Shown: positions 4,567 to 29,085 of the stretch, piece by piece | How the letters are laid out: each line of letters starts with the position of its first letter | Numbering within the stretch: the first letter of the stretch is position 1 | NCBI RefSeq assembly: GCF_000147335.1 | Contig: NC_014534.1 | Coordinates: 124,773 to 156,772 of the forward strand | DNA length: 32,000 nucleotides | Direction: 5' to 3' | Source: Gloeothece verrucosa PCC 7822 | GTDB taxonomy: Bacteria; Cyanobacteriota; Cyanobacteriia; Cyanobacteriales; Microcystaceae | Notes under the pieces: generated by a model | Database searches by the model: none | The model's input: only the letters and a program-made list of their open reading frames with translations | What the model was told of the DNA's origin: nothing | Translations under genes and position numbers: made by a program

Positions 4567-4944
4567 TTAAAAATTAGGTTTACTTACAACACCAGTAGCC
4601 AGTGCTGGCTGAGAAGTCGAGTTTTTGGTTACTAAAAGCTCTAAGGATTTAACTTTGATAACAGGCTTAGTGCGAACCTCCCCCGTGCTGTTGTCAGTCC
4701 AAGATTCGATCGTTAGTTCGCCTTTAACTCCCACGAGGGAGCCTTTGGAGCAATAATCACCCGCGACTTCAGCCGCCTTGCCCCAAACTTCGCAGGGAAA
4801 CCAGTTAGCCTCAGCATTTTTGCCCTCGCCACGATCGTCGGCTAGATTGAACTTAGCCAGAACGCTACCTGACTGAAAATAGCGAATTTCTGGATCTTGC
4901 CCTAAACGACCAGTAACGCTGATTTGATTGATGTTATTGTTCAT
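4567..4944 (-). CDS. ssb: single-stranded DNA-binding protein (OB fold) lacking the acidic tip
   Basis: MNNNINQISVTGRLGQDPEIRYFQSGSVLAKFNLA...WFPCEVWGKAAEVAGDYCSKGSLVGVKGELTIESW is the classic SSB OB-fold pattern. The C-terminus is ...VVSKPNF, with no DDIPF. Confidence 0.85.
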   Translation of the reverse strand: MNNNINQISVTGRLGQDPEIRYFQSGSVLAKFNLADDRGEGKNAEANWFPCEVWGKAAEVAGDYCSKGSLVGVKGELTIESWTDNSTGEVRTKPVIKVKSLELLVTKNSTSQPALATGVVSKPNF

Positions 4945-6698: not shown

Positions 6699-7538
6699 AT
6701 GACAAATATTATTGATGAATTTCTCAACTTGCCTAATTTTAATCAAGCGTGGTTTAAGGTAGCCGATAATAAAGGTTGTGCAGGGATTGATGGAGAAACC
6801 ATAGAAAAATTTGCTCTAAATTTAGATAATAATCTAACTTTCTTACTCAATTCTGTAGCTAATAGTAATTATATTCCTCAGCCGCTTCAACAAATCTTAA
6901 TTCCTAAAACTCAAGAAAAATGGCGAGAGTTAAGAATTCCCACTGTGCGGGATAGAATTGTTCAACAAGCATTATTAAATGTTCTCTATCCCGTAATGGA
7001 AAAACGTTTTTCTGATGCGAGTTTTGCTTATCGTCCTAATCGTTCTTATCTTGATGCCGTCAAAAGAGCCGCTTATTGGCGAGATTTGGGTTATCAGTGG
7101 GTATTGGATGCGGATATTGTTGAGTATTTTGATAATATTTCTCATCCTATCTTGTTAAAAGAAGTCAGAAAAACTATTGACAATTCAGGAATATTGTGCT
7201 TAATAAAAGCTTGGATTTCGGCAGTAATTTCAACCGATAAAGGAATTATTTTTCCAGAGAAAGGAATCCCTCAAGGTGCGGTTATTTCTCCGATGTTAGC
7301 TAATATTTATCTCGATGAGTTTGACCATCATTTTACTGAATCTGATTTAAAATTAGTGCGCTATGCCGATGATTTTTTATTGTTATCTAAGACTGAAGAT
7401 GCAATAATGAGCGGCTATGCTCAAGTTGTCCAGTTACTTCATTTATTAGGACTAGAGTTACATCAAGAAAAGACCCAAAGGGAGCGTGTCACTTTCGCCA
7501 AAGTGACACGCTCCCATAACACCTTCCTTTATAAGTGA
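6699..7538 (+). pseudogene. group-II-intron-like reverse transcriptase, 3'-truncated
   Basis: RT motifs 0-6 are present: NKGCAGIDGETIEKF, RELRIPTVRDRIVQQALL, FAYRPNRSYLDAV, VLDADIVEYFDNISH, GIPQGAVISPMLANIYL, VRYADDFLLL, GLELHQEKTQ. Homology stops near 7478, where a 36-bp palindrome begins. There is no motif 7, thumb/X or En domain, and no intron RNA domains flank it. Confidence 0.75.
7480..7515. repeat. perfect 16-bp-arm palindrome at the RT truncation point
   Basis: GGGAGCGTGTCACTTT-CGCC-AAAGTGACACGCTCCC. GGGAGCGT recurs at 7592-7599, next to a second hairpin CCCTCACG-TCC-CGTGAGGG (7576-7594). Confidence 0.6.
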
Positions 7539-7603: not shown

Positions 7604-7981
7604 TCAATTTCCCAACGTCAATACTGAGGACGACATATCCACCACCAAACGGTGTGTTTTTAACCACTGACGACCCAGTAAAACTTCAGATAAACCTTGC
7701 CCTACATGAACAGGAACCTCAAATTCGTTGCCATTAATTCGCATTTTTCCTAAAAAAACATCAAATTGTGAATCTCCCTGCGCTGTTCTCATAGTTTGTT
7801 GATCAACATAAATCCAACCAAGAGCATCTAAATCTTGTTCGTTAATTGCCAACCAACCAGAAAAACCCGTATCAAACATGGCATCAACTGCTAGTTCTAA
7901 ACCATCAGCAGCAAGCAACTCTATTTCAAAAAATAACCCATCTTCATCCCCAAAATAACCGGAAATCATAGGGTTCCGCAT
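7604..7981 (-). CDS. retropepsin-like (clan AA) aspartic protease
   Basis: DTGFSG active-site motif in a roughly 125-aa protein. This is a common cyanobacterial small-protease family. Confidence 0.7.
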   Translation of the reverse strand: MRNPMISGYFGDEDGLFFEIELLAADGLELAVDAMFDTGFSGWLAINEQDLDALGWIYVDQQTMRTAQGDSQFDVFLGKMRINGNEFEVPVHVGQGLSEVLLGRQWLKTHRLVVDMSSSVLTLGN

Positions 7982-8834: not shown

Positions 8835-9719
8835 TCAATTGCGTCTAACTCGGTTTAAACAACATTGCCAAGCCAACAAGGCATTAGCTTTAGACAATTG
8901 AGATTTAACTAATTCTAAATATTGAACCAATTTTTCTTCTCGATTTTCCCAAGCTTTATGTTGCCAATAATCGGCAAGCAACAATTGATTTATTGTTTCT
9001 AATTCACAAATCAATTGAGATTTGCTAAAGGTTTCTGAAAAGGTTGAACAAAAAGGAGACGCTAATTCGGAGGGCAGTTCGTCCAATAATTGTTGATAAG
9101 CGATCGCTTTAGATACAGAACCGCCGGCTAAATTCAAAACAACAGGATCTACTTTTATTCCCAAGCCACTCAACACACTTTGGAGTTTAGATGTAGACAG
9201 GGGACAAAAGGGAATAATATGGGCGCGGCTAATGATCGTTGGCGGCACAGATTCAATATTATCTGTGGTAAGGATTAACAATGCTTGCCCAGGTTCTTCT
9301 AGTGACTTTAATAAAGCCTGAGCCGCATTAGGGGTTAGGGATTCCACGTTTAAGATAATGGCAACTAACCTTTGAGATTTTAAGGGAGCTTGAGCCAAAA
9401 ACCGAGTTAATTCTCTGATTTGCTCGATCCGAATCTGAGCGACTTGATTATTAAAAGATAGCTGTTGTTCTCTTGCAACAGAAAGGGGAATTAAATCGTC
9501 CTGTTGGCAATAAGTCGGTTCAATTATTGTCAAGTCAGGATTATGCCGTTCCTCATCTGCTATAAGTGCCCTAGCCAAAGCGAGCGCAGTAGTTCTTTTG
9601 CCTACCCCAGATACACCAGTGAATAGATAGGCATTGGGGATGCGACCAGAAGTTAACGCGGCAGTGAGTAGTTTTATTGCTCCCTGTTGCCCGTTTATAC
9701 TGGAAAATATTGCTGACAT
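8835..9719 (-). CDS. holB: DNA polymerase III delta-prime subunit
   Basis: INGQQGAIKLLTAALTSGRIPNAYLFTGVSGVGKRTTALALARAL, then a Walker-B-like region, then an SRC-position motif (ISRAHIIPF). The start overlaps the holA end by 25 nt. Confidence 0.8.
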   Translation of the reverse strand: MSAIFSSINGQQGAIKLLTAALTSGRIPNAYLFTGVSGVGKRTTALALARALIADEERHNPDLTIIEPTYCQQDDLIPLSVAREQQLSFNNQVAQIRIEQIRELTRFLAQAPLKSQRLVAIILNVESLTPNAAQALLKSLEEPGQALLILTTDNIESVPPTIISRAHIIPFCPLSTSKLQSVLSGLGIKVDPVVLNLAGGSVSKAIAYQQLLDELPSELASPFCSTFSETFSKSQLICELETINQLLLADYWQHKAWENREEKLVQYLELVKSQLSKANALLAWQCCLNRVRRN

Positions 9720-10654
9720 AGTTGAATGATGTAAAGTTTAAGGTTTTTGTTGCCGGAATTGAAGGCAATCTGAGCCTTTAAAAGAACTTCTTGGCAGAAG
9801 ATAAATCTTTCTAGGGAAATAGTTTCAACTTCCAACATCAGGTAGTAACATCTGCCCTTATAGATGCCAGTACAAGCTTCTAAATGATGGGTATCAGTGA
9901 CCCCCTCAGAAACTAAAGCCTTGGTCCAAGTCCATTGTCGAAACAAAGTAATTAGGGAGGCAAGGATTTTAGGGGCTGCTTCCCCACTATTGTTCAAGTT
10001 CTCAAGGGTAGCGATCGCGGTTTTGACATCTTGCTTCAAACAGGCTTTAGCTAAATCAATAGATGTAGCCGCACGATTATCCACCAATTGATTGACACTT
10101 TCAACTGTGACGGCTTCGTCGCCGACGAAAGTTTTGAGTTTCTCTAACTCCCCAGATAATAGACGGGTGTCATTACCAACAGCGATAATTAACTGTTTGG
10201 CTGCGGCTTGAGTGAGGTCAACACCAATCGAGGTAGCCATTTGGTAAAGCTGAGTGATGAGAGTGCCTTCATCCCAAGGGGAAATCAAGTTAAATTCTTT
10301 AAAGAGTGCGGCTTTGTCGATAAGCATCTTAACCACTTTTAGCCGCCGATCAATTTTAGACGCTGTTAAGATCAAGACGGTGGTGCTAGGAAGAAGATCG
10401 ATCTCCTTTTCAACCTGTGCAATACTATCGTCGTTAATCGTACCAAACCAAGGGCATTGAATAAGATGAACAACCCTGAAACCGTTACCAATAGGGGGCT
10501 GGTTCATGGTAATGATTGCCTCATTGAGGGAATCTGGAGGATATTCATTGTAATTGAACAAAGACCACTCAGGGGCTAGATATTGAGCTAGTAGTGCCTG
10601 AATTTCTTGGGAGATTAAAAAATCGTTGTCACCGGTCATTAAGTAAAGTGGCAT
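9695..10654 (-). CDS. holA: DNA polymerase III delta subunit
   Basis: N-terminus MPLYLMTGDNDFLISQEI...WSLFNYNEY and overall length and pattern are typical of HolA. Its position between dnaX and holB supports the call. Confidence 0.75.
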   Translation of the reverse strand: MPLYLMTGDNDFLISQEIQALLAQYLAPEWSLFNYNEYPPDSLNEAIITMNQPPIGNGFRVVHLIQCPWFGTINDDSIAQVEKEIDLLPSTTVLILTASKIDRRLKVVKMLIDKAALFKEFNLISPWDEGTLITQLYQMATSIGVDLTQAAAKQLIIAVGNDTRLLSGELEKLKTFVGDEAVTVESVNQLVDNRAATSIDLAKACLKQDVKTAIATLENLNNSGEAAPKILASLITLFRQWTWTKALVSEGVTDTHHLEACTGIYKGRCYYLMLEVETISLERFIFCQEVLLKAQIAFNSGNKNLKLYIIQLCQQYFPV

Positions 10655-10709
10655 AGTGCTTTGTTGAATTTAACTGAAAAAACTTTCATTCTCACCTGTT
10701 TTTTCTTGA

Positions 10710-10807
10710 TATACTACAACGCCTCCGAGTATTTCCCCGAGTTGGGGACATTCAAATGACGCAAAATCCTTGTAGTACAAAACGGGGAGAAATTGACTTA
10801 TACTACA
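10710..10807. repeat. second cluster of three TGTAGTA(T/C)A motifs around a hairpin, in the dnaX-holA intergenic region
   Basis: TATACTACA at 10710-10718 and at 10799-10807 (the latter overlaps the dnaX stop codon). Inverted TGTAGTACA at 10771-10779. Hairpin CCCCGAGTTGGGG at 10735-10747. Confidence 0.5.
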
Positions 10808-12231
10808 AGTTCAATATTGACCTTGTGCCCCAAGATCTTCTCAAACGAATCACTTAAAGTAGAACTCGATTGAGAAATTCTGGGTTTAAATACCTCTGGG
10901 ACTTGGATTGTAGCGACATTTTCTTGCAGGGCGACCAATTTCGCCTGCTGATTGAGTAAGGCACTCAGTGCCTTTTGGGTTTGAGCCGCTATAATTTGTT
11001 TCCACAGACTATCTAGATTGATAGGCTCGCAAGGAAGCGTGGCTATAGATGCAGGAAGCGGGGTCAGGAACTTGTTAACACTGGGGTGCGGAACTCGTTC
11101 CGCACTCCCACTCAACTCTTTAGAAGAATTGGGAGGAGAGGGCACATAGACATCATTGGGCGCAAATAACCCTATTAAAGTTACCTCTAAAATAATACGG
11201 GGAACTCTGGATAATTTAATCTGAGTTAAGCCGCTTTTGAGTTTGCTGATCTGTGCAATCAATCGGTGGTCTGGGATATTTAAGCCCTGTAAGATTTCCC
11301 AGGTGCTTGCGGTTACTTTCCCTAATTCTGCATTATCGGCAGTTTGAGCCAATAATGCCGTAATGTGGAATTCTAAAAGGTTTTGAGCAATCACTAGAGG
11401 ATCTAAACCGACTTCATACAATTCCCTGGTTCGCTTAATAACTTGCTCGGTATCTTCCTCTTGGATCGCATTGAACAACAACAGTAGATCCTGTTCGGGG
11501 ACGGACCCAGTTAACTCATAAACTTGCTCAGGGGTAAGGGTATTGGACAACAAACTAAGTTGCTCTAATAAACATTGAGCATCCCTGAGTCCCCCCTGGC
11601 AATGTTGGGCAATCAGCCGCAGGACATGAGGGTCGATGGTAATATTTTCCCGTTGGGCGATGGCGGCTAAATGCTCTATGATCACCGAATCGCTCTCGCG
11701 GCGGAAATTAAACCGTTGACAGCGAGAGATAATCGTGTCCCCCAAACGCTCAGGTTCGGTGGTGCAAAGGATAAATACGACCCTTTCTGGCGGATTTTCC
11801 AGAGTCTTTAAGAGCGCTTGAATGGCGAAATGGGATAGGGCGTGGCATTCATCCAGAATCCAGACTTTATAGAGATTATGGGGAACGAACTGGGATTTTT
11901 CAATTAAATCTCTAATTTGCTCTACGGAATTGTTGCTGGCTGCGTCAATTTCAATGACATCGAGGGAGTTAGACGAGGCGATCGCACCACAGGAATCGCA
12001 CTGACCGCAGGGGGTAACGGTGGGGTTGTCCTCTGATAGGCAGTTAAGGGATTTGGCCAAGATACGGGCGGTGGAGGTTTTGCCCGTGCCCCTCGGTCCG
12101 CTAAAGAGATAGGCCGGGGCGATGCGTCCTGTGGTTATAGCATTGGTTAGGGTGGTGGCGATTGGCTGTTGTCCCACCAAATCGGCGAGGGTTTGGGGAC
12201 GATATTTGAGATGGAAAGGTAAGTGTCTCAT
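10798..12231 (-). CDS. dnaX: DNA polymerase III gamma/tau subunit
   Basis: HLKYRPQTLADLVGQ, Walker A GPRGTGKTS, zinc module CGQCDSC, Walker B ILDECHAL, sensor SRCQRF. The ATG at 12231 is preferred over the TTG at 12243. Confidence 0.9.
   Translation of the reverse strand: MRHLPFHLKYRPQTLADLVGQQPIATTLTNAITTGRIAPAYLFSGPRGTGKTSTARILAKSLNCLSEDNPTVTPCGQCDSCGAIASSNSLDVIEIDAASNNSVEQIRDLIEKSQFVPHNLYKVWILDECHALSHFAIQALLKTLENPPERVVFILCTTEPERLGDTIISRCQRFNFRRESDSVIIEHLAAIAQRENITIDPHVLRLIAQHCQGGLRDAQCLLEQLSLLSNTLTPEQVYELTGSVPEQDLLLLFNAIQEEDTEQVIKRTRELYEVGLDPLVIAQNLLEFHITALLAQTADNAELGKVTASTWEILQGLNIPDHRLIAQISKLKSGLTQIKLSRVPRIILEVTLIGLFAPNDVYVPSPPNSSKELSGSAERVPHPSVNKFLTPLPASIATLPCEPINLDSLWKQIIAAQTQKALSALLNQQAKLVALQENVATIQVPEVFKPRISQSSSTLSDSFEKILGHKVNIELVV
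11082..11107. repeat. 26-bp palindromic element inside dnaX coding sequence
   Basis: TGGGGTGCGGAACTCGTTCCGCACTC. The core GTGCGGAAC-TC-GTTCCGCAC is a perfect palindrome. It encodes ...SAERVPHPS... in the DnaX C-terminal linker. A second copy lies at 12923-12948. Confidence 0.7.
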
Positions 12232-12290
12232 TGAGCAAATCAAAATAAATGAAGGGTAATCTCTTGAAAAACTAGAGAATTGATAGATGC

Positions 12291-13658
12291 TTAATTAACT
12301 TTCGCAAGTTCTTTATCTTTTGTTTGATTAGGGGGCAGGGAGGGTTCTTTATTAACTGTAGGAACCTGCGGAAATTGGTCGACCTTGACCGGCATCAGAA
12401 GGACAAATGCGGAACAGTCCGGTTCAAGAGAAACTAGGCGGGATGCTTGATCGGGATCGATCGCCTCAAACTTGAGTTCGTTTCCTGGAAGTGCCAATAC
12501 AGCGTCGTGGAAATATTTAGAATTAAACGCGATCGTTAAATCTCGTTCAACGACTGCCGGGATATTTTCTATGCCTTGATGGTGGTCGCTAGAGAGCCAA
12601 TATAATTTAATTTGCTGGCGCTGGGCCGAACACTCCAATACTAATACGTTTTTCTTGGGATTGAGGATGTTCAGACGATTAATCGCCCGTTTCATTTCTA
12701 AGACTTGAAAATTAATTGAGTTTGGATACTCAGAAGGCAACAATTGATGAGCATTTGGATATGTGCCCTGCAATAAGCGACTAATCATCATTTGATGAGC
12801 GCCTAACTCAAATTGGACTTGTTTGTTATCCCACGAAATTTTTACTGTGGAACAAACGGGTTCAGAAAAATTATTGTCTATTGTCGGTGATGGTTCGTCT
12901 TCTCCTTGAACCGATTCGGATTGGGGTGCGGAACGAGTTCCGCACTCATCTTCTTGTGGAGATTGTGATGGTTGTTCGACATCTTCCTTAAAACCTCTCA
13001 ATAACTTCACTAGCTGTTGACAAGTATCTCCAGGGATAGTGATTCCCTCACTTTCAATCTCATCAATTCCAGCAAGATCATCAAGAGACAATTTACTCAT
13101 AGACAGACGGTGGCCATCCGTCGAAATTAACTCAAGTTTTGAGCTTGAAAAGAGAAAATGAACTCCACGAAGAATCTGTTTTGTCTCGTCGGTTGCATAA
13201 GAGCGCAAAACGGGAATTAAAGCTGATAATAAAGAGTGAGACGGTAGAGTTACGGATAAAAGCGTTTCGAGGATAGGGAGTTCCGGATATTGATTCGATT
13301 CGATCCCTTGCAATCGATAGATACTATTTTCGGCTTGAACAATTAAAATTAAAGGATTTTCGTCCTCCTCAAAATCTTCTGTAGTTTCAAGTTTAAAAGT
13401 TAATTCGGTTGCATTTAATTTATTAATCAAGCCCACTAAAAGTTTACCATTTACGCAAATGCTACCTTCTTCTTCAATGGAAACCGGAAAGCTCGTCGTT
13501 AAGCCTAAAGAACTATCAAAAGTGGTTAGGATAAGTTGTTGATCTTTTGCCTTCATTAAAACGTTGCTTAAAATCGGATAAGAAGGCTTAGGTGGAAGAA
13601 TAGTTTTAATTTGGGCTAAATGCTCAGAAATTGTGGTTTGAGAAACGGTAAATTCCAT
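12291..13658 (-). CDS. dnaN: DNA polymerase III beta sliding clamp, enlarged (455 aa)
   Basis: YPILSNVLMKAKDQQLILTTFDSSLGL, ISTDGHRLS, ITIPGDTCQQLVKLL, YPNAHQLLP and a near-C-terminal LLMPVKV follow the beta-clamp pattern. It carries an acidic/Ser/Pro-rich insert (about aa 224-267, nt 12858-12989) and a roughly 29-aa tail after MPVKV. Confidence 0.85.
   Translation of the reverse strand: MEFTVSQTTISEHLAQIKTILPPKPSYPILSNVLMKAKDQQLILTTFDSSLGLTTSFPVSIEEEGSICVNGKLLVGLINKLNATELTFKLETTEDFEEDENPLILIVQAENSIYRLQGIESNQYPELPILETLLSVTLPSHSLLSALIPVLRSYATDETKQILRGVHFLFSSSKLELISTDGHRLSMSKLSLDDLAGIDEIESEGITIPGDTCQQLVKLLRGFKEDVEQPSQSPQEDECGTRSAPQSESVQGEDEPSPTIDNNFSEPVCSTVKISWDNKQVQFELGAHQMMISRLLQGTYPNAHQLLPSEYPNSINFQVLEMKRAINRLNILNPKKNVLVLECSAQRQQIKLYWLSSDHHQGIENIPAVVERDLTIAFNSKYFHDAVLALPGNELKFEAIDPDQASRLVSLEPDCSAFVLLMPVKVDQFPQVPTVNKEPSLPPNQTKDKELAKVN
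12923..12948. repeat. 26-bp palindromic element inside dnaN coding sequence
   Basis: TGGGGTGCGGAACGAGTTCCGCACTC. The flanks are identical to the dnaX copy and the central dinucleotide is inverted. It encodes ...ECGTRSAPQS... within the beta-clamp insert. Confidence 0.7.
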
Positions 13659-13692
13659 AATTTTTCAGATAAATGCTCAAAATGAAGTTTAT

Positions 13693-13720
13693 CCCGTTAT
13701 AATCCTCCGATTATAACGGG
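13693..13720 (-). promoter_or_regulatory. intercistronic 11-bp-stem hairpin between the 298-aa gene and dnaN
   Basis: CCCGTTATAAT-CCTCCG-ATTATAACGGG. On the mRNA strand the loop reads CGGAGG. No U-tract follows, so it is not a classical terminator. Confidence 0.3.
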
Positions 13721-13727
13721 AATAGTT

Positions 13728-14624
13728 TTATTCTTCTTCAGGTTTAGCGGCTGGCAAAGCCATAACACTATTCGATTGCCCTGGAATCATCAATGGCTGA
13801 GATGGCTGCAAACCATCCCAAGCCATCTTTTTCGCTTCGGGGGAGTAACCGAGGAAAAAGGTATGCCAATTTTCTAGAGTGGGAATGGTATGGGACGTTA
13901 CCCGACAGGTAAAAGATTTTTGTTTATCACCGACAAGCTCTCTAGCTACAGAGAACTCAAATGCACATAAACAGTTAAATTTGTTGTTTTTGGGACGAGC
14001 CGCAATTCCTCGACTAATAGCATGGCAGTTGGTCATCTCAGTGAGGAACTGATTATGATGCTCACTGAAGGTTGCGCCGTTGGCCCCTTTAGCGATATAG
14101 GCTAGGGGTACTTGATGCAGGGGTTTATTGTCGGGGGTAAGCAAAAATACTTCACACAACCGCAGGTTAGAGACATTTTTCTCCTGTTTGTACTCAGCTT
14201 TCCAGGGGCCTAGGATCACTAACTGCTGAGATTCTTGTGAGGCTTCCCGGTCATAGCCTAACAGGGGAGTACGGGGGATGACCAGCATTCTTGGAGTCTT
14301 TAGCAGAACTCCCGATTCCAGTTCTCCATTAGATTCAAAGGTATAATCGACAATATAGGGATCAACGTACTCAAAATCGAGCCAACCCGCCTTAGCCATC
14401 TGATCCATAGAGACGAAATAGCCGCATAGATCGGGGGTAGCCCCTCTGAGCGCTTGGATGCGGGGGAGACGCGCGAAAGGATCGATATATTCCGGAGAAC
14501 AGAACTCGTCAAGTTCAGGTGGGGGAATGATAATATTAGAAGAAGTTTCGTTGTCAATCTCGGTTTCTTTGATGTCGTTGTTCGATTGAGTTTCTTTGAT
14601 TTCTTGGGTTTTTGTTGTAGACAT
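13728..14624 (-). CDS. uncharacterised 298-aa protein, first large gene of the dnaN operon
   Basis: Clean ORF with an AGAGGA SD. Acidic/Thr/Ser-rich N-terminus followed by a globular region (...RIQALRGATPDLCGYFVSMDQMAKAGW...). No catalytic motif recognised. Confidence 0.5.
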   Translation of the reverse strand: MSTTKTQEIKETQSNNDIKETEIDNETSSNIIIPPPELDEFCSPEYIDPFARLPRIQALRGATPDLCGYFVSMDQMAKAGWLDFEYVDPYIVDYTFESNGELESGVLLKTPRMLVIPRTPLLGYDREASQESQQLVILGPWKAEYKQEKNVSNLRLCEVFLLTPDNKPLHQVPLAYIAKGANGATFSEHHNQFLTEMTNCHAISRGIAARPKNNKFNCLCAFEFSVARELVGDKQKSFTCRVTSHTIPTLENWHTFFLGYSPEAKKMAWDGLQPSQPLMIPGQSNSVMALPAAKPEEE

Positions 14625-14632
14625 AGTATCCT

Positions 14633-14758
14633 CTAATAATGTAAATCGATATCACTGTATGCAAGATACTGAGCTTCCCAAATTTCATAAGCTGTTTGAT
14701 AATAGATTTCTTCGCTCTGGAAAGCTTCTTTTTGTGTTTTTTTTTCTAACGTTTCCAT
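14633..14758 (-). CDS. possible 41-codon small ORF
   Basis: METLEKKTQKEAFQSEEIYYQTAYEIWEAQYLAYSDIDLHY. It stops 9 nt before the start of the 298-aa gene. It is below the ORF-track length cut-off and has no other support. Confidence 0.2.
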   Translation of the reverse strand: METLEKKTQKEAFQSEEIYYQTAYEIWEAQYLAYSDIDLHY

Positions 14759-14827
14759 ATTTTTCAGCTTGAAATAACCACATTGAAAGCGCAAAGCGCT
14801 TATAGTTAAGTTTGATTAAAGCCAAAA

Positions 14828-15076
14828 TTATCTCCGAGATAGTCTCATGAAAAAGTTAACTACTGGAGTGGCATTAGAAACTTTCCAACCCGCTTTATAA
14901 CAGGCTTGAATGGCTTTGTCTAGTTCCTCTTTAGTTGAAAAGAATTTGTATTTTATCGGTTCGCAATTGGGAGTAAAAAGATAAGTTTGATAACCCCCTA
15001 AAATTTCCAAATAGGACATTCTTTTTACAAGAGGATGATGGCGATTTATAAAAGGCTTAATGGTTTTTCTCTGCAT
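14828..15076 (-). CDS. hypothetical protein (82 aa)
   Basis: ORF overlapping the 3' end of the TGT-like gene by 31 nt. No motif recognised. Confidence 0.4.
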   Translation of the reverse strand: MQRKTIKPFINRHHPLVKRMSYLEILGGYQTYLFTPNCEPIKYKFFSTKEELDKAIQACYKAGWKVSNATPVVNFFMRLSRR

Positions 15077-15930
15077 TGATATTCCCCATAAGCTAAAAGG
15101 TTTTGAATTAAATTATGTGCCGCTAGTTTTAACTTATATTCCCTCCTTGAAAGAAGTTGAACGCCCAAAAATGAGCAAGCTGTACAAGAGCAAGAGGGAA
15201 GGTTAATACTCGATAATTTAAGCTTGTTAAGCTTGTTATTTTTCCAATGATAATAATAGCCAAGAAAAGCTTCCTTGATCCAAGTTGAGCTATCATGACT
15301 ATTAATTGCCAGTTGTCCAAACTTTCCCGCCAATTGGTAATTAGAAACACCTAAGATATGCAAATAGCAATTATCAGAAAGATGATTTTTAATTATCTCA
15401 ACAATGCCCAGAAGTTGATGTTGATTGTGGGAATTGGATAGTAAGCCGCCTACTGCAAAATAGCGATATCCCAAATGGTAAAGCCGTTTAAGCTCTTGAA
15501 GTTTTTGAGATATACCGATTCCATGAATAACGGCCATTGGATAACATTGAGGCAAATACAGTTTTGAGAGTTTCAAGAATTGTTGGGATGATTGACGGTT
15601 AAATTCCCTTCTTTCTTCATTATTAATCCCCATTAATAAATGGTCGATGGCGATAACAATATCTCCTGGTTTTGCCCGTTTTTGATATTGTTTTATCGCC
15701 CACAACGGTGTCACTAAATTATTGCCGATTCGGGGAATTTTTAAGTTTTTATAGGACCATACGCCGCAATCGGGAATAATCCTAAACGGGGGAATTAAGC
15801 CAGGATTGATATTTAGCGAAAGTAGCCAACTTAGAGGAAGAACCGGAGGGGGAATGAGTTGCCAAAGAGGGAGACGAGGATTGCTATTAAAATAATCAGT
15901 TTTCCCGATAAAAGGGACAAATTGAGTCAA
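15046..15930 (-). CDS. tRNA-guanine-transglycosylase (TGT) superfamily protein, DpdA-like candidate DNA 7-deazaguanine transglycosylase
   Basis: TTG start at 15930 preceded by an AAGGAGA SD. TGT-type zinc motif CSCTAC (CxCxxC) with a downstream His in LAAHNLIQNL. Also HILGV and HDSSTW segments at the positions of the TGT barrel catalytic strands. At 294 aa it is shorter than bacterial Tgt. Confidence 0.6.
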   Translation of the reverse strand: MTQFVPFIGKTDYFNSNPRLPLWQLIPPPVLPLSWLLSLNINPGLIPPFRIIPDCGVWSYKNLKIPRIGNNLVTPLWAIKQYQKRAKPGDIVIAIDHLLMGINNEERREFNRQSSQQFLKLSKLYLPQCYPMAVIHGIGISQKLQELKRLYHLGYRYFAVGGLLSNSHNQHQLLGIVEIIKNHLSDNCYLHILGVSNYQLAGKFGQLAINSHDSSTWIKEAFLGYYYHWKNNKLNKLKLSSINLPSCSCTACSFLGVQLLSRREYKLKLAAHNLIQNLLAYGEYQCREKPLSLL

Positions 15931-16001
15931 ATATTCTCCTTGTTTAAGAGTTGATTAGGAAGCGGATCTCTCCCTTTTTTATTGCCTAGTCGATGAGCAT
16001 T

Positions 16002-16276
16002 TTAATTACAAATAGGACAGAGGGATTTGTTATTATGCTTCCGTTTAAGATAGAATTCTACTGATTTACCCCCGTCCCAAATTCTCACTAAATTAAACGA
16101 GATTTTTTTTGAAAGAATGCCGCCGTTATTTTCGCTCCATTTCCCTTTCTATGTTCTAATAACCTAGATGCTAAATTATCAGTAGAGCCGAGATAATGTT
16201 GTGCCGATTCTAGAGGATTATTTTTATTACCGATTGGTTGCTCATAATGCAACAGATAGACTTTATTCTGACTCAT
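16002..16276 (-). pseudogene. GIY-YIG-like nuclease-domain protein, frameshifted at an A8 run
   Basis: KVYLLHYEQPI...HYLGSTDNLASRLLEHRKGNGAKIT (track ORF 16088..16276) continues in another frame as ISFNLVRIWDGGKSVEFYLKRKHNNKSLCPICN, ending at 16002. The shift is at the T8/A8 tract at 16103-16110. Confidence 0.55.
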
Positions 16277-17159
16277 TTACTGCCGTTTCTCCTATTAAAT
16301 AATTAAAAGCTTCATTAGCCTTCTGCGCGGCTTTTAAAAATGCGGTTTTATCTGAGGATAATACTTGTAACCAGGAATTTAAGTAAGAAGTATGATTTTC
16401 TAAGCTATAGTTAATTCCAAAATGATTGCAAAGAAAAGCAGAACCTAGATCGGCGATTAATTCTTCAAAAGCATAACCTGTTGAACCTTTAGGATTATCT
16501 AACGGGCGATCGCAACGACTTGAATGTCCTGTCCGATGAACAATTTCGTGAAGATAAGTTGAATAGAAGCCTTCAACTGAATTAAAGTCGGAAGGTTTTG
16601 GCATTCTGATAGTATCTGATGAGGGGATATAACAAGCGATCGGTCCGCCAAAGTGCCTAGCCAGTTGAAGCGAGTTAATAAAGGCTTCAACTTCGGGGAT
16701 GGCGTTAAAATCTTCTGATTTTTTCGGGCTAAAAGTTTCAAGGCGTTCCGCTATCTTGCGATCGCTCTTTGTATCATCCAAGCAAGCAATATTAAAAACT
16801 GAAAACCAGCGACAACCGTTTCTGTATTCTTTTTTGGTTTCCTTGGTTTGAGGATCTTCTACTTCAGCCGCGTAAACCCCTCCCCATCGAATCCAGGTTG
16901 CTTTACTTCCTTTCTTGACAAACCACCCTTGTGCTTTTGCTTGTTGATAGCTGAGAAAAAAGGGATGTTCCCAATTATTGAGGATCAAATCGATCTGGCA
17001 TAGCAAGGGATTAATGCCACGATAGATATGCGAAGTTAAAAAGTTTTGATACTGGGCTGTATGCCAAGGCTTTGCCCAGGGTTTAACTCCTGTCTCGATT
17101 AAAGTAATCAATTTATTGGTAATCAACTCATTTTTATCAATAGTTTTGGCAGCAACCAT
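16263..17159 (-). CDS. ardC: ArdC-like antirestriction protein (N-terminal ssDNA-binding domain plus zincin metalloprotease)
   Basis: GVKPWAKPW...YRGINPLLC is the N-domain signature, and the C-domain has HEIVHRTGH (HExxH). Strong GAGGAGGA SD. Confidence 0.8.
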   Translation of the reverse strand: MVAAKTIDKNELITNKLITLIETGVKPWAKPWHTAQYQNFLTSHIYRGINPLLCQIDLILNNWEHPFFLSYQQAKAQGWFVKKGSKATWIRWGGVYAAEVEDPQTKETKKEYRNGCRWFSVFNIACLDDTKSDRKIAERLETFSPKKSEDFNAIPEVEAFINSLQLARHFGGPIACYIPSSDTIRMPKPSDFNSVEGFYSTYLHEIVHRTGHSSRCDRPLDNPKGSTGYAFEELIADLGSAFLCNHFGINYSLENHTSYLNSWLQVLSSDKTAFLKAAQKANEAFNYLIGETAVNESE

Positions 17160-17183
17160 CTCTATTCTCCTCCTCGAAAATAA

Positions 17184-17735
17184 TTAAGAAATTCTGAGAT
17201 GTTGTCCTCGTGGCATCACCTTAGCCACCAGTCTCCCAGTTTGATCGCGTATCTCTCCGGCCTCGATCGCCGCATCAACCAATGCAGCTTTATTGAGAGT
17301 TGGCATATACTCTAAATATTCTTCGGGGAAGTCTTGTTCACTCAGTTCAGGGTTTACCCACACAGGTACTTTCCCGCCGTTGATGCACAGGGAAATGCGG
17401 GATAATTTTCCTTCTAACTTTTTCCCTTTATCCCCCAGTTCGGCTACACGGTTCTCCATAAACGCCTGTAATTTGGATTTGAGCCAAGTTACAGTGTTTT
17501 TAGAGGATTGAGCTAGTTTATTTAGCCGCTCGGCTTCTGATTGTCGATAATTAGCTATGGCTTCCTGAGCTTTAATCGCTTTTACATAGTTATCTATTTT
17601 GTTCTCTAAGCGTGGCAGAAAATCTTTGTTGAAGATCTCTTCGGCGATCGCTCTAGATTCTGGATCATCTGAATTCAGATGTTCTAAGAGCAGTTCTAAT
17701 TCTTGATCAAGTTCTGCTAAAGTTTCTGTCGGCAT
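17184..17735 (-). CDS. Siphovirus Gp157-like protein
   Basis: Coiled-coil N-half (ELDQELELLLEHL...IDNYVKAIKAQEAIANYRQSEAERLNKLAQSSKNTVTWLKSKLQAFM) and C-half (...LNKAALVDAIEAGEI...) match the remembered Gp157 family layout. Confidence 0.55.
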   Translation of the reverse strand: MPTETLAELDQELELLLEHLNSDDPESRAIAEEIFNKDFLPRLENKIDNYVKAIKAQEAIANYRQSEAERLNKLAQSSKNTVTWLKSKLQAFMENRVAELGDKGKKLEGKLSRISLCINGGKVPVWVNPELSEQDFPEEYLEYMPTLNKAALVDAAIEAGEIRDQTGRLVAKVMPRGQHLRIS

Positions 17736-18446: not shown

Positions 18447-19721
18447 TTAAAACTCATAGTTATATCCATCTTTTTTTTGAATAGCTGTGCAAAATTTATA
18501 GGTAATTCCTGTTGTTCTGCCTTGATGGGATGCTATGTCGAAGCGGCCCGAAGCTCGACATAAAACTCGACCTAAATAAACACCAACTTTTTTTCCTTTT
18601 GTAACTACTGCTTTTACTTGAGCTCCAGTTTGAAATCCTTTGTAAAATTTGTTTCTAGACCGATGTCGAATAGGAAAACCGTATTTATTGATTCCGCACA
18701 TCTGTCTATTTCCGTGTCCTGTCGCTTTAATTAACAATGGTTGCCTTGTTAATAGTTTTAAGCTTTCAAGATTTCCGACACATCCCGCATCTATAAAATG
18801 TCTTTTTTCTAGATTTAATCTACATCTGTTATATTTAGTTCTACCTCCTGTTCCTGTTTCAATTGATAATCCTGTTTCTTTCAGCTTGTTAAATAATGCC
18901 CAACGAGTTGTGTTAACAGCAGCGACATTCTTAAGGGATTGCTTAGATTGTTTTAGAATCTTTTCTAGTAAACTAGGTTGGTTAGATAAGAAATCTTTAA
19001 TATCTTGATTCCCTTTCAATTGATTACAAATTCTACAAGAAATAGTTAAATTTGAACATCTGTCTGATCCTCCTTTTGATTTTGCTAGAATATGTTCAAC
19101 TTCTAACGGTACATCTTTAATACCACAGTAAACGCATCGTCTCCCCCATTTTTCAAGTAAATATTCTCGAATCTCATATCCAAAAAGTTCTCCTTGTTGG
19201 TATTCTTTACCTGATATTTCGGGGTTATCTAAAGCTTGAGTATCAAATTTAACAAGTTCTACCGAAATATTAGTAACATGAACAAATTTGCAAATACGTT
19301 TTACCCAGGTCATGGTCGTTTCTACACGATGTCGGAGACTGGGAGGAAGCCAACCTTTAAGTCGAGTACGATTTAGAAATCGCGCTTGCCGATATCGGGT
19401 TTTTCGGTTTCTACGGCTACGACGAATTTGTCTTCGAGTTAACAAATTATCTTTAATCTGTTGTCCTCTGTGAATTAATTCTGCTCCCCAAATAAGCTTG
19501 TCTTGTTGAACTAATGCAATCCCAGTCGTCTTGCTTCCAGGGTCTAGCTTTAGTTTGATAGTTTCTGTGGGTTTTTGGCATTCTTTTTTCAAAATTATAG
19601 TAAAAGGATAACGCCTTAAAACCGCAGCTTTGCCCTGCTTGAGAAGTTTTCTAGCTACTGATGGATGACAGGGACTAAGAGGGTTTTTCTTCGCATCTAG
19701 AACAAATACAAAATTTGACAT
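18447..19721 (-). CDS. iscB: IscB (OMEGA RNA-guided nuclease: PLMP, split RuvC, bridge helix, HNH)
   Basis: PLMP-type N-terminus (KKNPLSPCHPSVARKLLKQGKAAV), RuvC-I (KLDPGSKTTGIAL), Arg-rich bridge (RRQIRRSRRNRKTRYR), HNH (CVYCG...LEVEHILAKSKGGSDRCSNLTISCRICNQLKGN), RuvC-II/III (AAVNTTRW, KRHFIDAGCVG). The 424-aa ORF is intact with an AAGGAGAG SD. Confidence 0.9.
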   Translation of the reverse strand: MSNFVFVLDAKKNPLSPCHPSVARKLLKQGKAAVLRRYPFTIILKKECQKPTETIKLKLDPGSKTTGIALVQQDKLIWGAELIHRGQQIKDNLLTRRQIRRSRRNRKTRYRQARFLNRTRLKGWLPPSLRHRVETTMTWVKRICKFVHVTNISVELVKFDTQALDNPEISGKEYQQGELFGYEIREYLLEKWGRRCVYCGIKDVPLEVEHILAKSKGGSDRCSNLTISCRICNQLKGNQDIKDFLSNQPSLLEKILKQSKQSLKNVAAVNTTRWALFNKLKETGLSIETGTGGRTKYNRCRLNLEKRHFIDAGCVGNLESLKLLTRQPLLIKATGHGNRQMCGINKYGFPIRHRSRNKFYKGFQTGAQVKAVVTKGKKVGVYLGRVLCRASGRFDIASHQGRTTGITYKFCTAIQKKDGYNYEF

Positions 19722-20312: not shown

Positions 20313-20627
20313 GGTTTTAATTTTAAGCTATTGGTCAAAAAAAAAGCGCAATCCTTGAACTTCTTCCCTTAATTGCGCGATTCTACATCATGAGGTGCAA
20401 TAATTGGGGAAACATTAATGAAAAGATGTACATGGTCGGCATAATTTCTAGGGCTATAATATTCCAATCTTTTTCAAGACAAATATTCCAAATAATCTTC
20501 CTTAACCTTTTTATACATCTCCCACTAAAACTTTTTTTCGACGTTTGGAAATCCAAACTAAGTGGTAATTAACCAAAAATACTGTGTGACTTTTTGTTCG
20601 ATATTGTTGAGTCATTTGTCACAAATT

Positions 20628-22136
20628 ATGCTAGACTTAATTGTAGTTAATAGTATAACAACTAAAATAAAGGGGTTAAAATTGCTGCTAGGCTACGTCT
20701 ATAAGTTACGTCCCAATCTAGAACAATCAGCCAAAATAGATAGCTGGTTAGATAAGCTTCGCGCAACTTATAACTGGAGTCTAGCTGACAGAATCAATAC
20801 TTACCAACAAAGGTTTATACAGGGGGAATATTGCGATTTACGAACTCGCTCTGTAGCTTGTCCTTTAACCTGTTGTGTACTTAACAACAGCGCAACCGGA
20901 GAACCCTGGAGGAAAAACGGTGAGAAGAGAACGGCCAAAGAAATCCAAATCACTGCCTTGCCTCAACTGAAAAAAGCTAGACCCTGGTACAGGGAAATTG
21001 ATTCAACAGTTTTACAACAAAACTTAGAACGTTTAAATAAAGCTTATGAGAACTTCTTTGCTGGCCGAGGCTTTCCTAAGTTTAAAAACCGTAGTAATTT
21101 TAAATCCTTCACTTATGCTACTGGAGTCCAACTCAAAGGTAATAAAATCTATCTTCCCAAATTAGGATGGATGCGATATTACAATTCTCGTCCAATCCCT
21201 GACGGATTTAAAGTTAAATCGGTAACTGTTAGAAAAAAAGCCGATGGGTATTATGTGAGTATTAGGATTGAAAATAGTTCTATACCGTCTTTTCCTATCT
21301 TACCAATAGATGAGGTTAAAACTGTAATAGGAGTTGATGCCGGAGTGACCAAGCTACTGCATTGTTCCGATAAATCAGTGATAGAAAATCCTCGATTTGG
21401 TACTAACCCAAAAACTAAAAGGCAATTAAAAATCCGCCAAAGAAGATTAAGTCGTTGTAAGAAAGGCTCTAAAAATAGTAAAAAAAAGGCCACTCAACTA
21501 GCTAAATTACATCATAAAATTAAACAGAAAAGAGAGGCATACGCATGGAAAGTAGCTCATAAGATAGTTAAAAAAGCCGACTGTATTGTAGTAGAAGACC
21601 TGAACATACAGGGTTTATTAAAAAGATGCAAACCAATTAAATGTGAACAAACCGGACGATTTCTGCCCAATGATCAAAGTGCTAAAAAAGCACTCCATCG
21701 TTCTATCATAGATGCGTCCTGGCATTCTTTGTTTCAAAAGAGTGAGTATCTAGCTGCGAAGTTAGGAAAAGTTTTCTTAAAAGTTGACCCTAAAAAGACA
21801 AGTCAAACTTGTCCAAAATGCGGTTATGCTGACAAAGAAAATCGAAATAAAGAAAAATTTGTTTGCCTTGACTGCGGTCATTTTAGTGACTCAGATTGGA
21901 ACGCATCTATTAATCTAAAAAACCGAGCTATATCTCAGTTTAATCTAAAAATAAAACAGCCCAGAAAGGTACGACAGGACTTGTCGGAACCCAAGCAACT
22001 TAGTTTGTTTGAAACGCCCTCCCCTGAATTAACAGAGGTTCAAAGGAGACAACATTCTGCTAGAAATAGCAAACGGGATGTGCCGGGGAACCCGCCTACT
22101 CAATTGAGTTTATGGGATATTCAGGACTTGGCTTAG
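20628..22136 (+). CDS. tnpB: TnpB (IS200/IS605 OrfB, IS1341-type stand-alone), apparently intact
   Basis: GYVYKLRPNLEQSAKIDSWLDKLRATYNW N-terminus, RuvC-I IGVDAGVTKL, RuvC-II IVVEDLNIQGL, zinc finger CPKCGY...CLDCGH, RuvC-III DSDWNASINL. The ATG at 20628 is preferred to the track start at 20562. No tnpA adjacent. Confidence 0.85.
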   Translation: MLDLIVVNSITTKIKGLKLLLGYVYKLRPNLEQSAKIDSWLDKLRATYNWSLADRINTYQQRFIQGEYCDLRTRSVACPLTCCVLNNSATGEPWRKNGEKRTAKEIQITALPQLKKARPWYREIDSTVLQQNLERLNKAYENFFAGRGFPKFKNRSNFKSFTYATGVQLKGNKIYLPKLGWMRYYNSRPIPDGFKVKSVTVRKKADGYYVSIRIENSSIPSFPILPIDEVKTVIGVDAGVTKLLHCSDKSVIENPRFGTNPKTKRQLKIRQRRLSRCKKGSKNSKKKATQLAKLHHKIKQKREAYAWKVAHKIVKKADCIVVEDLNIQGLLKRCKPIKCEQTGRFLPNDQSAKKALHRSIIDASWHSLFQKSEYLAAKLGKVFLKVDPKKTSQTCPKCGYADKENRNKEKFVCLDCGHFSDSDWNASINLKNRAISQFNLKIKQPRKVRQDLSEPKQLSLFETPSPELTEVQRRQHSARNSKRDVPGNPPTQLSLWDIQDLA

Positions 22137-22412: not shown

Positions 22413-23725
22413 GGTTCTTTAGATTTAAGTATGCTAAAATAATAAAAACAATAGCAAAAATAACAAGCCTAAACTTTAATGCCCTCTCCAGCACAACTAA
22501 AATTGATTCAAAATTTTCTCAACCTCCCCAATATTAAAGTTATAGATTATACAAGACAAGAAAATGTAGGAATGATTATTCAAGTTTTAGCTAATCATAA
22601 AGCTGCTATTTGCCCGCGATGTAAGACAAAAAGTGAAAAATTACATCAAAATCATTCATTTTTAGTCAGAGATTTACCTTTTAGTAATCAGGAAGTTTAT
22701 TTAAAAGTTACTCGAAGACAATTTAAATGCCAAAAATGCCAAAAACCTTTTAGTGAAGAGATTGATTTTATTAAAACAAGAAGAAGTTATACTAAACGTT
22801 TAGCCGCTCAAATTGTTGAGCAAGTATTAAATAGTAATATAAAAACGGTGGCAGAGCAAAATAATTTGAGTCAAGATATTGTAGAAAGAATGCTAAAAGA
22901 TATAGCCAGCGAAAAGCTTAAAGAAAAACCGAAAAATCTCAAAAAACTAGGAATAGATGAAATAGCTCTAGTAAAAGGGCATGGCAATTACTGTGCTGTT
23001 TTAATAGATTTGGAACAAGGTAAATTAATAGGGATGCTGCCTTCAAGAAAACAAGAAGATTTAAAACAATATTTAAAAAAATGGGGAAAAGAAATTCTTG
23101 AAGAGATAGAAGCAGTCAGTATAGATTTATGGAAATCTTATAAAACTTTAATTCAAGAATTGATGCCACAAGCTGAAATTATTGCTGACCGTTTTCATGT
23201 TATGAAAGCTATTAATACAGAATTAGATATGAAAAGAAAAACAATAAAGAAAAAAGCTTATACTCAAAAAAACAAATCTGAAAAAATTTTAGATGCCTTA
23301 AGTAAAAGTAAATATGCTTTGTTGAAAAATGAAAAAGACTTAACAGAAATTCAAAAAGAAAAACTTAAAAAAGTAAAGCAAGAAATTCCTATTTTAGGAA
23401 AAATGCACGAAATCAAAGAAGAATTTCGAGAAATTTTGGACAAGAATTATGATTGGTTAACAGGATTAGATAACTTAAGCGAGTGGCTATTAGCGGCTTC
23501 AACTTTATTTCCTAATAGTTCTAGGACAATTATTAGATGGTTTTCCGAAATCATGGGGTATTTTGAAAGTCGTATTACACAAGGTGTTGTAGAGGGAATT
23601 AATAATAAGCTTAAGTTGATTAAGCGGTCTGGCTATGGGTTCAAAAATTTTGAAAATTTTAAATTAAGATGTTTATTAAATTGGGCTATTACTTGTTAAC
23701 TTAGCATACTTAAATCTGAAGAACC
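22413..23725 (+). mobile_element. ISL3-family insertion sequence (1313 bp)
   Basis: 25-bp TIRs GGTTCTTTAGATTTAAGTATGCTAA (22413-22437) and TTAGCATACTTAAATCTGAAGAACC (23701-23725) bracket a single transposase ORF. Confidence 0.8.
22479..23699 (+). CDS. ISL3-family transposase
   Basis: N-terminal zinc-ribbon (CPRCKTKSEKLH...CQKCQKPF), GIDEIALVKGHGNYCAVLIDLEQGKLIGMLPSR, IADRFHVMK, and C-terminal VEGINNKLKLIKRSGYGFKNFENFKLRCLL, which is the classic ISL3/DDE_Tnp_ISL3 pattern. Confidence 0.85.
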   Translation: MPSPAQLKLIQNFLNLPNIKVIDYTRQENVGMIIQVLANHKAAICPRCKTKSEKLHQNHSFLVRDLPFSNQEVYLKVTRRQFKCQKCQKPFSEEIDFIKTRRSYTKRLAAQIVEQVLNSNIKTVAEQNNLSQDIVERMLKDIASEKLKEKPKNLKKLGIDEIALVKGHGNYCAVLIDLEQGKLIGMLPSRKQEDLKQYLKKWGKEILEEIEAVSIDLWKSYKTLIQELMPQAEIIADRFHVMKAINTELDMKRKTIKKKAYTQKNKSEKILDALSKSKYALLKNEKDLTEIQKEKLKKVKQEIPILGKMHEIKEEFREILDKNYDWLTGLDNLSEWLLAASTLFPNSSRTIIRWFSEIMGYFESRITQGVVEGINNKLKLIKRSGYGFKNFENFKLRCLLNWAITC

Positions 23726-23902: not shown

Positions 23903-24151
23903 CTTGGCGTTTTCCTAATCGATTGAAACTCCCTTACTTAAAAGATAAAGGCTTTCAACGTTACCGATTATTTTTCGGTAATAAATAGCCACATATCTTC
24001 GAGGGCTATTGATCAATGCCGCTTTATAGAATATTTCTGGAAGAGTAATTGGAAGTTGGCAGAGCATAAAATTATATTAAAATATAAAAATGAGCATGGC
24101 AACTCCTTATTTTTAATAAAAAGCTGCCAGATCCTATCAGTTTTTGGGAAG

Positions 24152-28378: not shown

Positions 28379-29085
28379 AAACAACCCTAGCACACAATCT
28401 CGGTTGGCATTTAGGGCAGAGACAGCGCGTGCTGTTAGTGGATTTAGACCCTCAGTCGTCCCTAACCTCATTTATGGGGTTAGTTCCTTCAAATCTAGAA
28501 AAAACGGTTTATCATTCTCTAGTGGAACAGGAACCGTTAACCATCCAAAAAAACATTCACGATACTGTTGATCTGGCCCCGGCCAATGTTGGGTTAAGCG
28601 CAGCCGAGATGCAATTAGTCCCTTTAGTAGCGCGGGAAATGCGCTTAAAGAACGCGATCTTAGCTGTTGCCGACGATTATGATTTTATCTTAATTGATTG
28701 TCCGCCCAGCTTGGGATTGCTATCTATTTTAGGTCTTGTCGCTTCAACTCATGTGCTTGTGCCAGTCCAAACTCAAGTAAAATCTTTTGAGGGGACAGAC
28801 CTCTTATTAAAAACCGTCGCGGATATCAAAAGCTTAGTGAACCGTTCTTTATCTTTTGCAGGGTTCATACCGACTTTGTATGATAAGCGCACTATCCATC
28901 AATATGAAGTTTATAAGGCAATCTCGACTCAATTAAGTCAACTTGCACCGGTTTATGAACCCATACCTCATACGATTGCTTTCCCGGATTCATCTCTAAA
29001 GCGGCTTCCCCTCGCTCTATATAAACCCAATCACCCCGCAGTTCATATTATTGAATCCATTGCTCAACAACTAGAACAGCTATGA
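28379..29085 (+). CDS. parA: ParA-type partition ATPase, exon 2
   Basis: After splicing the frame reads ...GGVA-K-TTLAHNLGWHLGQRQRVLLVDLDPQSS...ILIDCPPSLG..., giving Walker A, A' and B of ParA/Soj-type ATPases. The track ORF 28429..29085 is the in-frame tail. Confidence 0.8.

Follow-up and report, generated by a model that had tools for sequence, protein, structure and literature searches.

Introduction

For elongation, plasmids are commonly held to rely on the DNA polymerase III (Pol III) holoenzyme of the host, and it is unusual for a plasmid to carry a bacterial-type sliding clamp along with a full clamp loader. Escherichia coli DNA polymerase II, which belongs to family B, binds the beta clamp via a C-terminal pentapeptide; QLSLF is a canonical beta-clamp-binding pentapeptide, and the clamp-binding consensus in Dalrymple et al. 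2001 is said to be QL[SD]LF. In addition, cyanobacteria are characterized by an atypical control of chromosome replication. The plasmid family-B polymerase (PolB) considered below was reported in 2016 to be known in cyanobacteria only from three plasmids, other than the one treated here, and was recognized as a relative of the polymerases of Nostoc phages A-1/N-1, clamp genes being unmentioned (Chenard et al. 2016, PMC4916379). The present work deals with an operon lying in a stretch of 32,000 nucleotides (hereafter the window) of plasmid Cy782202 (NC_014534) from Gloeothece verrucosa PCC 7822, also called Cyanothece sp. PCC 7822. At positions 8835-14624 of the window, on the reverse strand, five consecutive intact open reading frames (ORFs) encode a DUF5895 protein, the beta clamp (dnaN) and the clamp-loader subunits DnaX, delta (holA) and delta-prime (holB). 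This operon is a polymerase-less member of a module found on cyanobacterial plasmids, and on balance we favour the view that its intact set of clamp and minimal loader is the local copy of a replication or establishment module whose clamp would, in the module family, tether a polymerase of the element.

The Operon and Its Products

The initial annotation, made from the letters alone, had claimed four consecutive clamp and clamp-loader genes on the same strand behind a head gene of 298 amino acids (aa), and profile searches back every call. The spacings and the overlap which it gave also hold, that is, 59 bp between dnaN and dnaX (counted from the ATG start of dnaX), 143 bp between dnaX and holA and a 25-nt overlap of holA and holB; the DUF5895 gene and dnaN are 69 bp apart. 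Coordinates, sizes and identities are collected in Table 1. Scans for promoters and terminators gave a signal no better than shuffled sequence. A hairpin in the spacer between the DUF5895 gene and dnaN may act as an attenuator, or as a site of RNA processing, which sets the stoichiometry of the operon products.

The beta clamp matches all three clamp domain families as well as phrog_947, scores 220 bits with TIGR00663 (cutoff 138), and its top sequence matches in the PDB are solved beta clamps. The canonical motifs of the predicted peptide-binding pocket, TDGHRL and LMPV, are visible in the sequence. As annotated, the protein carries an acidic, Ser- and Pro-rich insert, at about aa 222-266 and found in no relative, and a 29-aa C-terminal tail beyond LMPVKV. 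Its identity to plasmid clamps and to chromosomal cyanobacterial clamps alike is 26-32%. The plasmid beta clamps examined in related modules (L003, L004, L006 and L007) all have a long low-complexity extension at the N- or C-terminus, which often ends in basic residues, whereas chromosomal clamps are without such extensions.

DnaX is best matched by NF011510 (555 bits), a model which also fits cyanobacterial chromosomal DnaX, although it stays below the cutoff of 593 bits for membership of that equivalog; it exceeds the cutoffs of NF004046 (408 bits against 400) and TIGR02397 (388 bits against 250). AAA+ domains I-III are present (PF13177, PF22608 and PF12169), followed by a C-terminal DnaA_N-like domain (PF23007, E 5e-8), and the Walker A motif GPRGTGKTS, the Cys4 zinc module, the Walker B motif DECH and the SRC arginine finger are all intact. 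The C-terminal domain was also considered as an argument about the polymerase, and this argument was dropped, as the domain correlates with neither the type nor the presence of a polymerase.

Both remaining loader calls are above a curated cutoff. Delta scores 157 bits with TIGR01128 (cutoff 80) over residues 3-313 and matches PF06144 and PF21694, and delta-prime scores 232.7 bits with NF005638 (cutoff 230) and matches PF13177 with E 2.7e-32, its 131 bits with TIGR00678 being under the cutoff of 180.6. Delta-prime has no acidic Walker B pair, NVES standing in place of DE, and in the sequence ISRAH it has SRA for SRC, as the initial annotation had noticed, with the arginine kept; eight other plasmid delta-primes have SRC. 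The protein therefore combines a match to the DNA_pol3_delta2 fold and an SRx arginine with the lack of a catalytic Walker B motif, as its family does.

An Accessory Set of Genes

The window proteins beta, DnaX and DUF5895 are identical to NCBI proteins of G. verrucosa, and the replicon which carries the window is plasmid Cy782202, of 473,846 bp. It has been reported as a linear 474-kb element alongside the 6.1-Mb chromosome NC_014501 (PMC3187577, PMC4320622). The chromosome has a Pol III beta subunit of its own, Cyan7822_2379 of 393 aa, and a Pol III delta subunit, Cyan7822_1292 (supplementary table, PMC4320622). Furthermore, when domains I-III of DnaX were compared in a neighbour-joining tree, nine chromosomal sequences of cyanobacteria grouped in one tight clade (100% bootstrap), and every plasmid or short DnaX, including that of the window, falls outside this clade on long branches, so that the impression of divergent proteins in the initial annotation is confirmed.

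Because of the plasmid location, the presence of chromosomal beta and delta and the position of DnaX outside the chromosomal clade, the operon genes of Cy782202 are accessory paralogues and not the housekeeping set. The family names alone would favour the opposite, namely that these are the dnaN, dnaX, holA and holB by which the organism lives, situated on its main chromosome; this is refuted by the same three facts. The supposition of an accessory replicon in the initial annotation is thus borne out, and the contrary case, sole copies on the main chromosome, is not what was found.

The Module in Cyanobacterial Plasmids

In tblastn searches of plasmid records (PLSDB), DUF5895 was found on 39 records, all of them cyanobacterial and 25 of them typed as conjugative, holA on about 40 cyanobacterial plasmids, delta-prime likewise, and PolB in 19 records; beta clamp matches occur on many cyanobacterial plasmids. 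Of 50 plasmids with holA matches, 28 were typed as conjugative (MOBP/MPF_T). The arrangement is a conserved module rather than a one-off; it is annotated by PGAP in RefSeq and occurs on some 40 cyanobacterial plasmids, which are large and for the most part conjugative. The order DUF5895-dnaN-dnaX-...-holA-holB is found on pP742402 (G. citriformis PCC 7424), pCC7120beta (Nostoc PCC 7120), pCHRO.01 (Chroococcidiopsis PCC 7203) and a Calothrix plasmid, and pANACY.02 of Anabaena cylindrica has the same order but no DUF5895 annotated at the head position. The module is also present on an Aphanothece plasmid and on metagenomic contigs. In relatives it lies near genes for PrimPol/PriCT-2, a DEAD/MrfA-type helicase, a PD-(D/E)XK nuclease, Gp157, ArdC, SSB and ParAB. 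A second architecture, on Gloeocapsa and Planktothrix plasmids, begins with an AAA ATPase followed by dnaN-dnaX-holA, and there DUF5895 is located about 10 kb off, adjoining a type IV coupling protein.

Synteny between the window and pP742402 extends from ParAB through holB, and the window has the gene order of the module with Gp157, ArdC and SSB nearby. The clamp and loader proteins are less similar to their pP742402 counterparts than the adjacent Gp157 and ArdC are (Table 1; region 8835-17735), a contrast suggestive of rapid evolution or of exchange of the module. When the operon was compared with PLSDB by megablast there was no match, the source record not being in PLSDB, and a search of genome contigs with the beta clamp gave two Clostridia matches only, which are irrelevant. 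Plasmids of the Bacillus cereus group were also considered; on these, holA and delta-prime are present at scattered places without forming a module. The initial annotation knew of no described system of this composition, and this agrees with our literature search, which turned up an account of PolB only (PMC4916379) and none of the clamp and loader genes as a module of cyanobacterial plasmids.

Two further observations were made near related modules. An E2/JAB (MPN)/ThiF ubiquitin-like gene set lies just upstream of the module on several plasmids (L004, 3409-5509; L015, 1655-3069; L016, 1780-4188). In addition, a 75-kb contig (L012, 3387-5594) has a sigma-70/ResT-TelK protelomerase fusion gene near Gp157 and DUF5895; Cy782202 itself is reported to be linear.

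The Polymerase Slot and Clamp-Binding Peptides

In the relatives, the gene between dnaX and holA labelled "3'-5' exonuclease" is a compact family-B polymerase (PF03104 and PF00136), in most copies with intact exo, DxxSLYPS, KxxxNSxYG and DTDG motifs. All five plasmid PolBs which were read end in an invariant C-terminal QLSLF preceded by variable residues, whereas the PolB of Nostoc phage N1, a related control of 41% identity, has a different end without QLSLF; no clamp gene is annotated in the 9.7-kb stretch around it. Related compact PolBs are located on Deinococcus plasmids. In Aphanothece hegewaldii the slot is occupied by a family-A polymerase (PolA) starting MQLSILLF; QYSLLLF is found close to the N-terminus of another PolA, from a related metagenomic module, and on an Allocoleopsis plasmid PolA is paired with holA, a helicase, SSB and delta-prime. 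The dnaX-holA slot thus appears to be a swappable polymerase cassette. Because a PolB or PolA with a clamp motif sits between dnaX and holA in relatives, we infer from this anatomy that the evident client of the clamp in the module family would be a polymerase encoded by the element and not primarily host Pol III.

In the window the slot is an empty spacer without any polymerase, and a terminal clamp-binding peptide was found on no ORF of the 32 kb. The three-plasmid list of Chenard et al. weakly suggests that PCC 7822 is without this PolB. A 32-aa remnant of a slot gene, the one preceding polB on pP742402, is nevertheless present elsewhere in the window (Table 1), and because it abuts an ISL3 element the polymerase cassette was probably lost or relocated by rearrangement mediated by insertion sequences (IS). 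A close metagenomic relative (L009/L010) also has a slot without polymerase.

Proposed Role and Alternative Explanations

According to the proposal which we favour, the loader made up of DnaX, delta and delta-prime would place the beta ring of the element on primed DNA, where this ring would tether a polymerase encoded by the same element, namely a family-B enzyme with QLSLF at its end or a family-A enzyme with QLSILLF or QYSLLLF at its start. PrimPol, the DEAD/MrfA-type helicase, SSB and DUF5895 are encoded alongside in the module family. In the window variant, the client of the loaded clamp would be a polymerase with its gene elsewhere, or polymerases of the host. The cooperation of clamp and loader, the tethering of the cassette polymerases by the clamp and the replication or establishment of the plasmid by the module are all predictions from gene content and motifs. 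The partner of the window clamp could be a host polymerase, the product of a gene elsewhere on the plasmid or, if the locus is decaying, none.

Several points weigh against this proposal. The initial annotation had seen no Pol III alpha, primase or helicase in the window and this is confirmed: tblastn found no PolB, PrimPol or helicase in the 32 kb, profile searches found no polymerase, primase or replicative helicase there, and neither a complete Pol III holoenzyme nor an autonomous replisome is encoded within it. Because L009/L010 shares the empty slot, the polymerase-less state may be a stable, viable variant rather than a product of decay. Moreover, the clamp and loader subunits are 31-49% identical to those of pP742402 while the flanking Gp157 and ArdC are 71-77% identical, and this difference could reflect relaxed constraint on the clamp and loader. 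Finally, only 7 of the 422 genes of Cy782202 were seen as protein in one proteome study.

A stronger form of the proposal, which we regard as doubtful although worth stating, makes the module a self-contained orthogonal plasmid replisome, consisting of clamp, gamma3-delta-delta-prime loader, swappable PolB or PolA, PrimPol, helicase, SSB and DUF5895 as a new replisome part or a handler of single strands, which would replicate or establish the plasmid independently of host Pol III, its polymerase-less variants borrowing host polymerases. The initial annotation had supposed that an orthogonal clamp and loader either recruits or monopolises the host Pol III core or supports replication or establishment of the element. 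We consider the former, a capture of Pol III or of other host polymerases, unlikely: the slot is without polymerase in the window and in L009/L010, the kept pocket motifs TDGHRL and LMPV suggest that peptides of host clients could bind, and DnaX keeps its DnaA_N-like domain (PF23007) as chromosomal DnaX does, but most relatives encode a polymerase with a clamp motif inside the module, and the C-terminal domain of DnaX does not track the presence or absence of a polymerase. The anatomy of the family thus points elsewhere, although the empty-slot copy of the window may use a host polymerase. It is also somewhat unlikely that the module is confined to conjugative establishment, that is, that it belongs to a leading-type region which makes incoming single-stranded DNA (ssDNA) double-stranded in a new host without need of the recipient replisome and takes no part in vegetative replication. 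The neighbouring ArdC, DpdA-like enzyme, Gp157 and SSB, the conjugative typing of so many plasmids bearing DUF5895 and holA and the type IV coupling protein beside DUF5895 in the second architecture would agree with such a region. However, the window contains no oriT, relaxase or type IV secretion system genes, a 6-kb operon would need expression before the complementary strand exists, and the adjacency of ParAB and PrimPol fits vegetative replication equally.

Two further explanations appear improbable to us. The clamp, the loader, PolB or PolA, the MrfA-like helicase, the PD-(D/E)XK nuclease, Gp157 and DUF5895 might form a cassette for repair or recombination-dependent synthesis, acting in gap filling or break repair and not in origin-dependent replication. 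Such a cassette would account for the Zn-domain MrfA helicase in the module family, for the nuclease adjoining DUF5895 or holA, for the classification of Gp157 as a Mu Gam-like protein of end protection and for the related PolBs on Deinococcus plasmids, but PrimPol, ParAB and a full clamp loader exceed the needs of repair, given the machinery of the host. Alternatively, the five genes would be a functionless remnant, decaying after loss of polymerase, PrimPol and helicase in a region ridden with IS, IscB, TnpB and intron elements. The slot-gene fragment beside ISL3, the SRA found in this delta-prime alone, the low-complexity insert found in this beta alone and the few proteins of Cy782202 detected would agree with decay. 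Against this, none of the five ORFs is truncated and their catalytic motifs are intact, the overlap of holA and holB is retained, and L009/L010 has the same polymerase-less layout. A local copy of a replication or establishment module remains the reading which we favour.

The DUF5895 Protein

The family of the protein at the head of the operon is a rare one, with 348 clusters among 1.84e9 representatives, among which there are no informative domain fusions. The window protein is 51% identical to the gene product at the same position on pP742402, and its AlphaFold2 model (from a 53-sequence alignment) has a pLDDT of 88 and a pTM of 0.80. Foldseek against the PDB gave nothing significant with this model, the best E being 0.08 and the resemblances to OB-fold, SSB, MCM N-terminal and Whirly structures being faint. 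A sequence-profile search of the PDB gave no match, hhalign with T7 gp2.5 was negative (4% probability), and PHROGs and Pfam scans of 53 and 70 members returned DUF5895 itself as the sole match. In BFVD, viral DUF5895 proteins match, one of them from an iridovirus, and there are weak matches to phage proteins labelled SSB or DUF669. The neighbours of DUF5895 are always replication or recombination genes, namely Gp157, the PD-(D/E)XK nuclease, PrimPol and the clamp genes. The module gives this family a functional context, and a role in ssDNA binding or strand annealing is a reasonable guess, although a tentative one. A homologue is also encoded by cyanophage S-EIV1 (L020, 6842-7948), adjoining PolA and an annotated SSB.

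The Neighbourhood of the Operon

The neighbours named in the initial annotation, that is, ArdC, a Gp157-like protein, a TGT/DpdA-like enzyme and many IS elements, are present, and genes of IscB, TnpB and group II introns are to be added to them (Table 1). Of the two SSB paralogues which it had listed, one was found and the second was looked for in the window and not detected. Similarly, the parAB cassette is present, but parA starts 13.8 kb from the operon and not about 12 kb. In TnpB, QLSLF, the pentapeptide of the plasmid PolBs, occurs internally (aa 479 of 524), and this may be a coincidence. A related module (L013; 2195-6237 and 17023-19087) contains TGT-DndB, HMUDK and MazG base-hypermodification genes; these and the DpdA-like gene of the window indicate that some such elements may modify their own DNA.

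Table 1. Features of the 32-kb window of plasmid Cy782202, with positions in the window and amino acid identity to the pP742402 counterparts
Feature	Position	Strand	Description and profile matches	Identity to pP742402
DUF5895 gene, operon head	13728-14624	-	298 aa; PF19247, E 1.6e-40	51%
dnaN (beta sliding clamp paralogue)	12291-13658	-	455 aa; PF00712, PF02767, PF02768; TIGR00663	31%
dnaX (short, gamma/tau-like)	10798-12243 (TTG start), or from ATG 12231	-	481 / 477 aa; NF011510, TIGR02397	49%
holA (delta paralogue)	9695-10654	-	319 aa; TIGR01128, PF06144, PF21694	37%
holB (delta-prime paralogue)	8835-9719	-	294 aa; NF005638, PF13177	43%
dnaX-holA spacer	10655-10797	-	143 bp, empty; in related plasmids a slot for PolB or PolA together with small genes	
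Hairpin in DUF5895-dnaN spacer	13692-13721	-	13-bp stem	
DpdA-like transglycosylase (TGT superfamily), upstream of operon	15046-15930	-	NF041059 68 bits, below cutoff 200; PF01702, E 8e-6	
ArdC-like antirestriction/zincin protein	16263-17159	-	PF08401, PF18818	71%
Gp157-like protein (Mu Gam-like by PHROG)	17184-17735	-	PF05565, phrog_253	77%
Plasmid SSB	4567-4944	-	125 aa; PF00436, E 1e-26; TIGR00621 94 bits; 37.5% identical to pCC7120beta ssb	
parA-parB cassette	28429-29987	+	PF13614, PF02195	ParA 53%, ParB 47%
ISL3 transposase gene	22479-23699		adjoins slot-gene fragment	
N-terminal fragment of slot gene	23972-24067	-	32 aa; match by tblastn, E 2.6e-14, to the gene intervening between dnaX and polB on pP742402	78%
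IscB RNA-guided endonuclease, full-length	18447-19721	-	NF040563 470 bits; RRXRR and HNH	
Second IscB-like ORF, N-terminally truncated	30568-31644	-		
TnpB (IS605 OrfB)	20562-22136	+	524 aa	
Group II intron reverse transcriptase (RT)/maturase with HNH, one complete, and one truncated RT	6699-7538, 26564-28270	+		
Small retropepsin-like aspartyl protease ORF	7604-7981	-		

Comparison with Known Systems

The protein families of the module are well known, and the composite of clamp, loader, swappable PolB or PolA and DUF5895 is annotated in databases but was not found described in the searchable literature. Its recurrence with swappable polymerases carrying clamp-binding peptides points to an element-specific replisome; if this is true, the module represents a natural orthogonal set of clamp, loader and polymerase. 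Since Nostoc PCC 7120, which is genetically tractable, has a copy on its plasmid pCC7120beta, the idea is directly testable.

Compared with the chromosomal beta clamp and the minimal DnaX complex (gamma/tau3-delta-delta-prime), the plasmid proteins belong to the same families and have the same domain orders and AAA+ motifs, and because the models which fit best, NF011510 and NF005638, are those of cyanobacterial subfamilies, the plasmid loader genes seem to have descended from cyanobacterial genes, as far as such profile matches suggest. Unlike the chromosomal set, however, the plasmid genes are fast-evolving and gathered in one operon with DUF5895 at the head and without DnaE or DnaQ, the plasmid DnaX is about 430-480 aa long against 580-800 aa in chromosomes and lies outside the chromosomal clade, and the plasmid beta has disordered extensions. 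With the module of pP742402 and pCC7120beta, the window shares the gene order and the flanking Gp157, ArdC, SSB and ParAB, but it is without the PolB cassette, PrimPol/PriCT-2 and the DEAD/MrfA helicase, and it adds the upstream DpdA-like gene and many IS elements.

The plasmid PolBs resemble E. coli Pol II, which is a distant tblastn match to them, in being family-B polymerases with a 3'-5' exonuclease domain and a terminal clamp-binding peptide, here QLSLF; they differ from it in being compact (about 600 aa) and in being encoded beside their own clamp and loader, the window having none. Some phages also encode DnaN homologues (PHROG 947), the phage matches being 20-26% identical. Phage T4 with gp45 and gp44/62 is likewise a mobile element which supplies its polymerase with a clamp and a loader of its own, but the T4 proteins are a PCNA-like trimer and an RFC-like loader, while those of the window are a clamp and a loader of the bacterial type.

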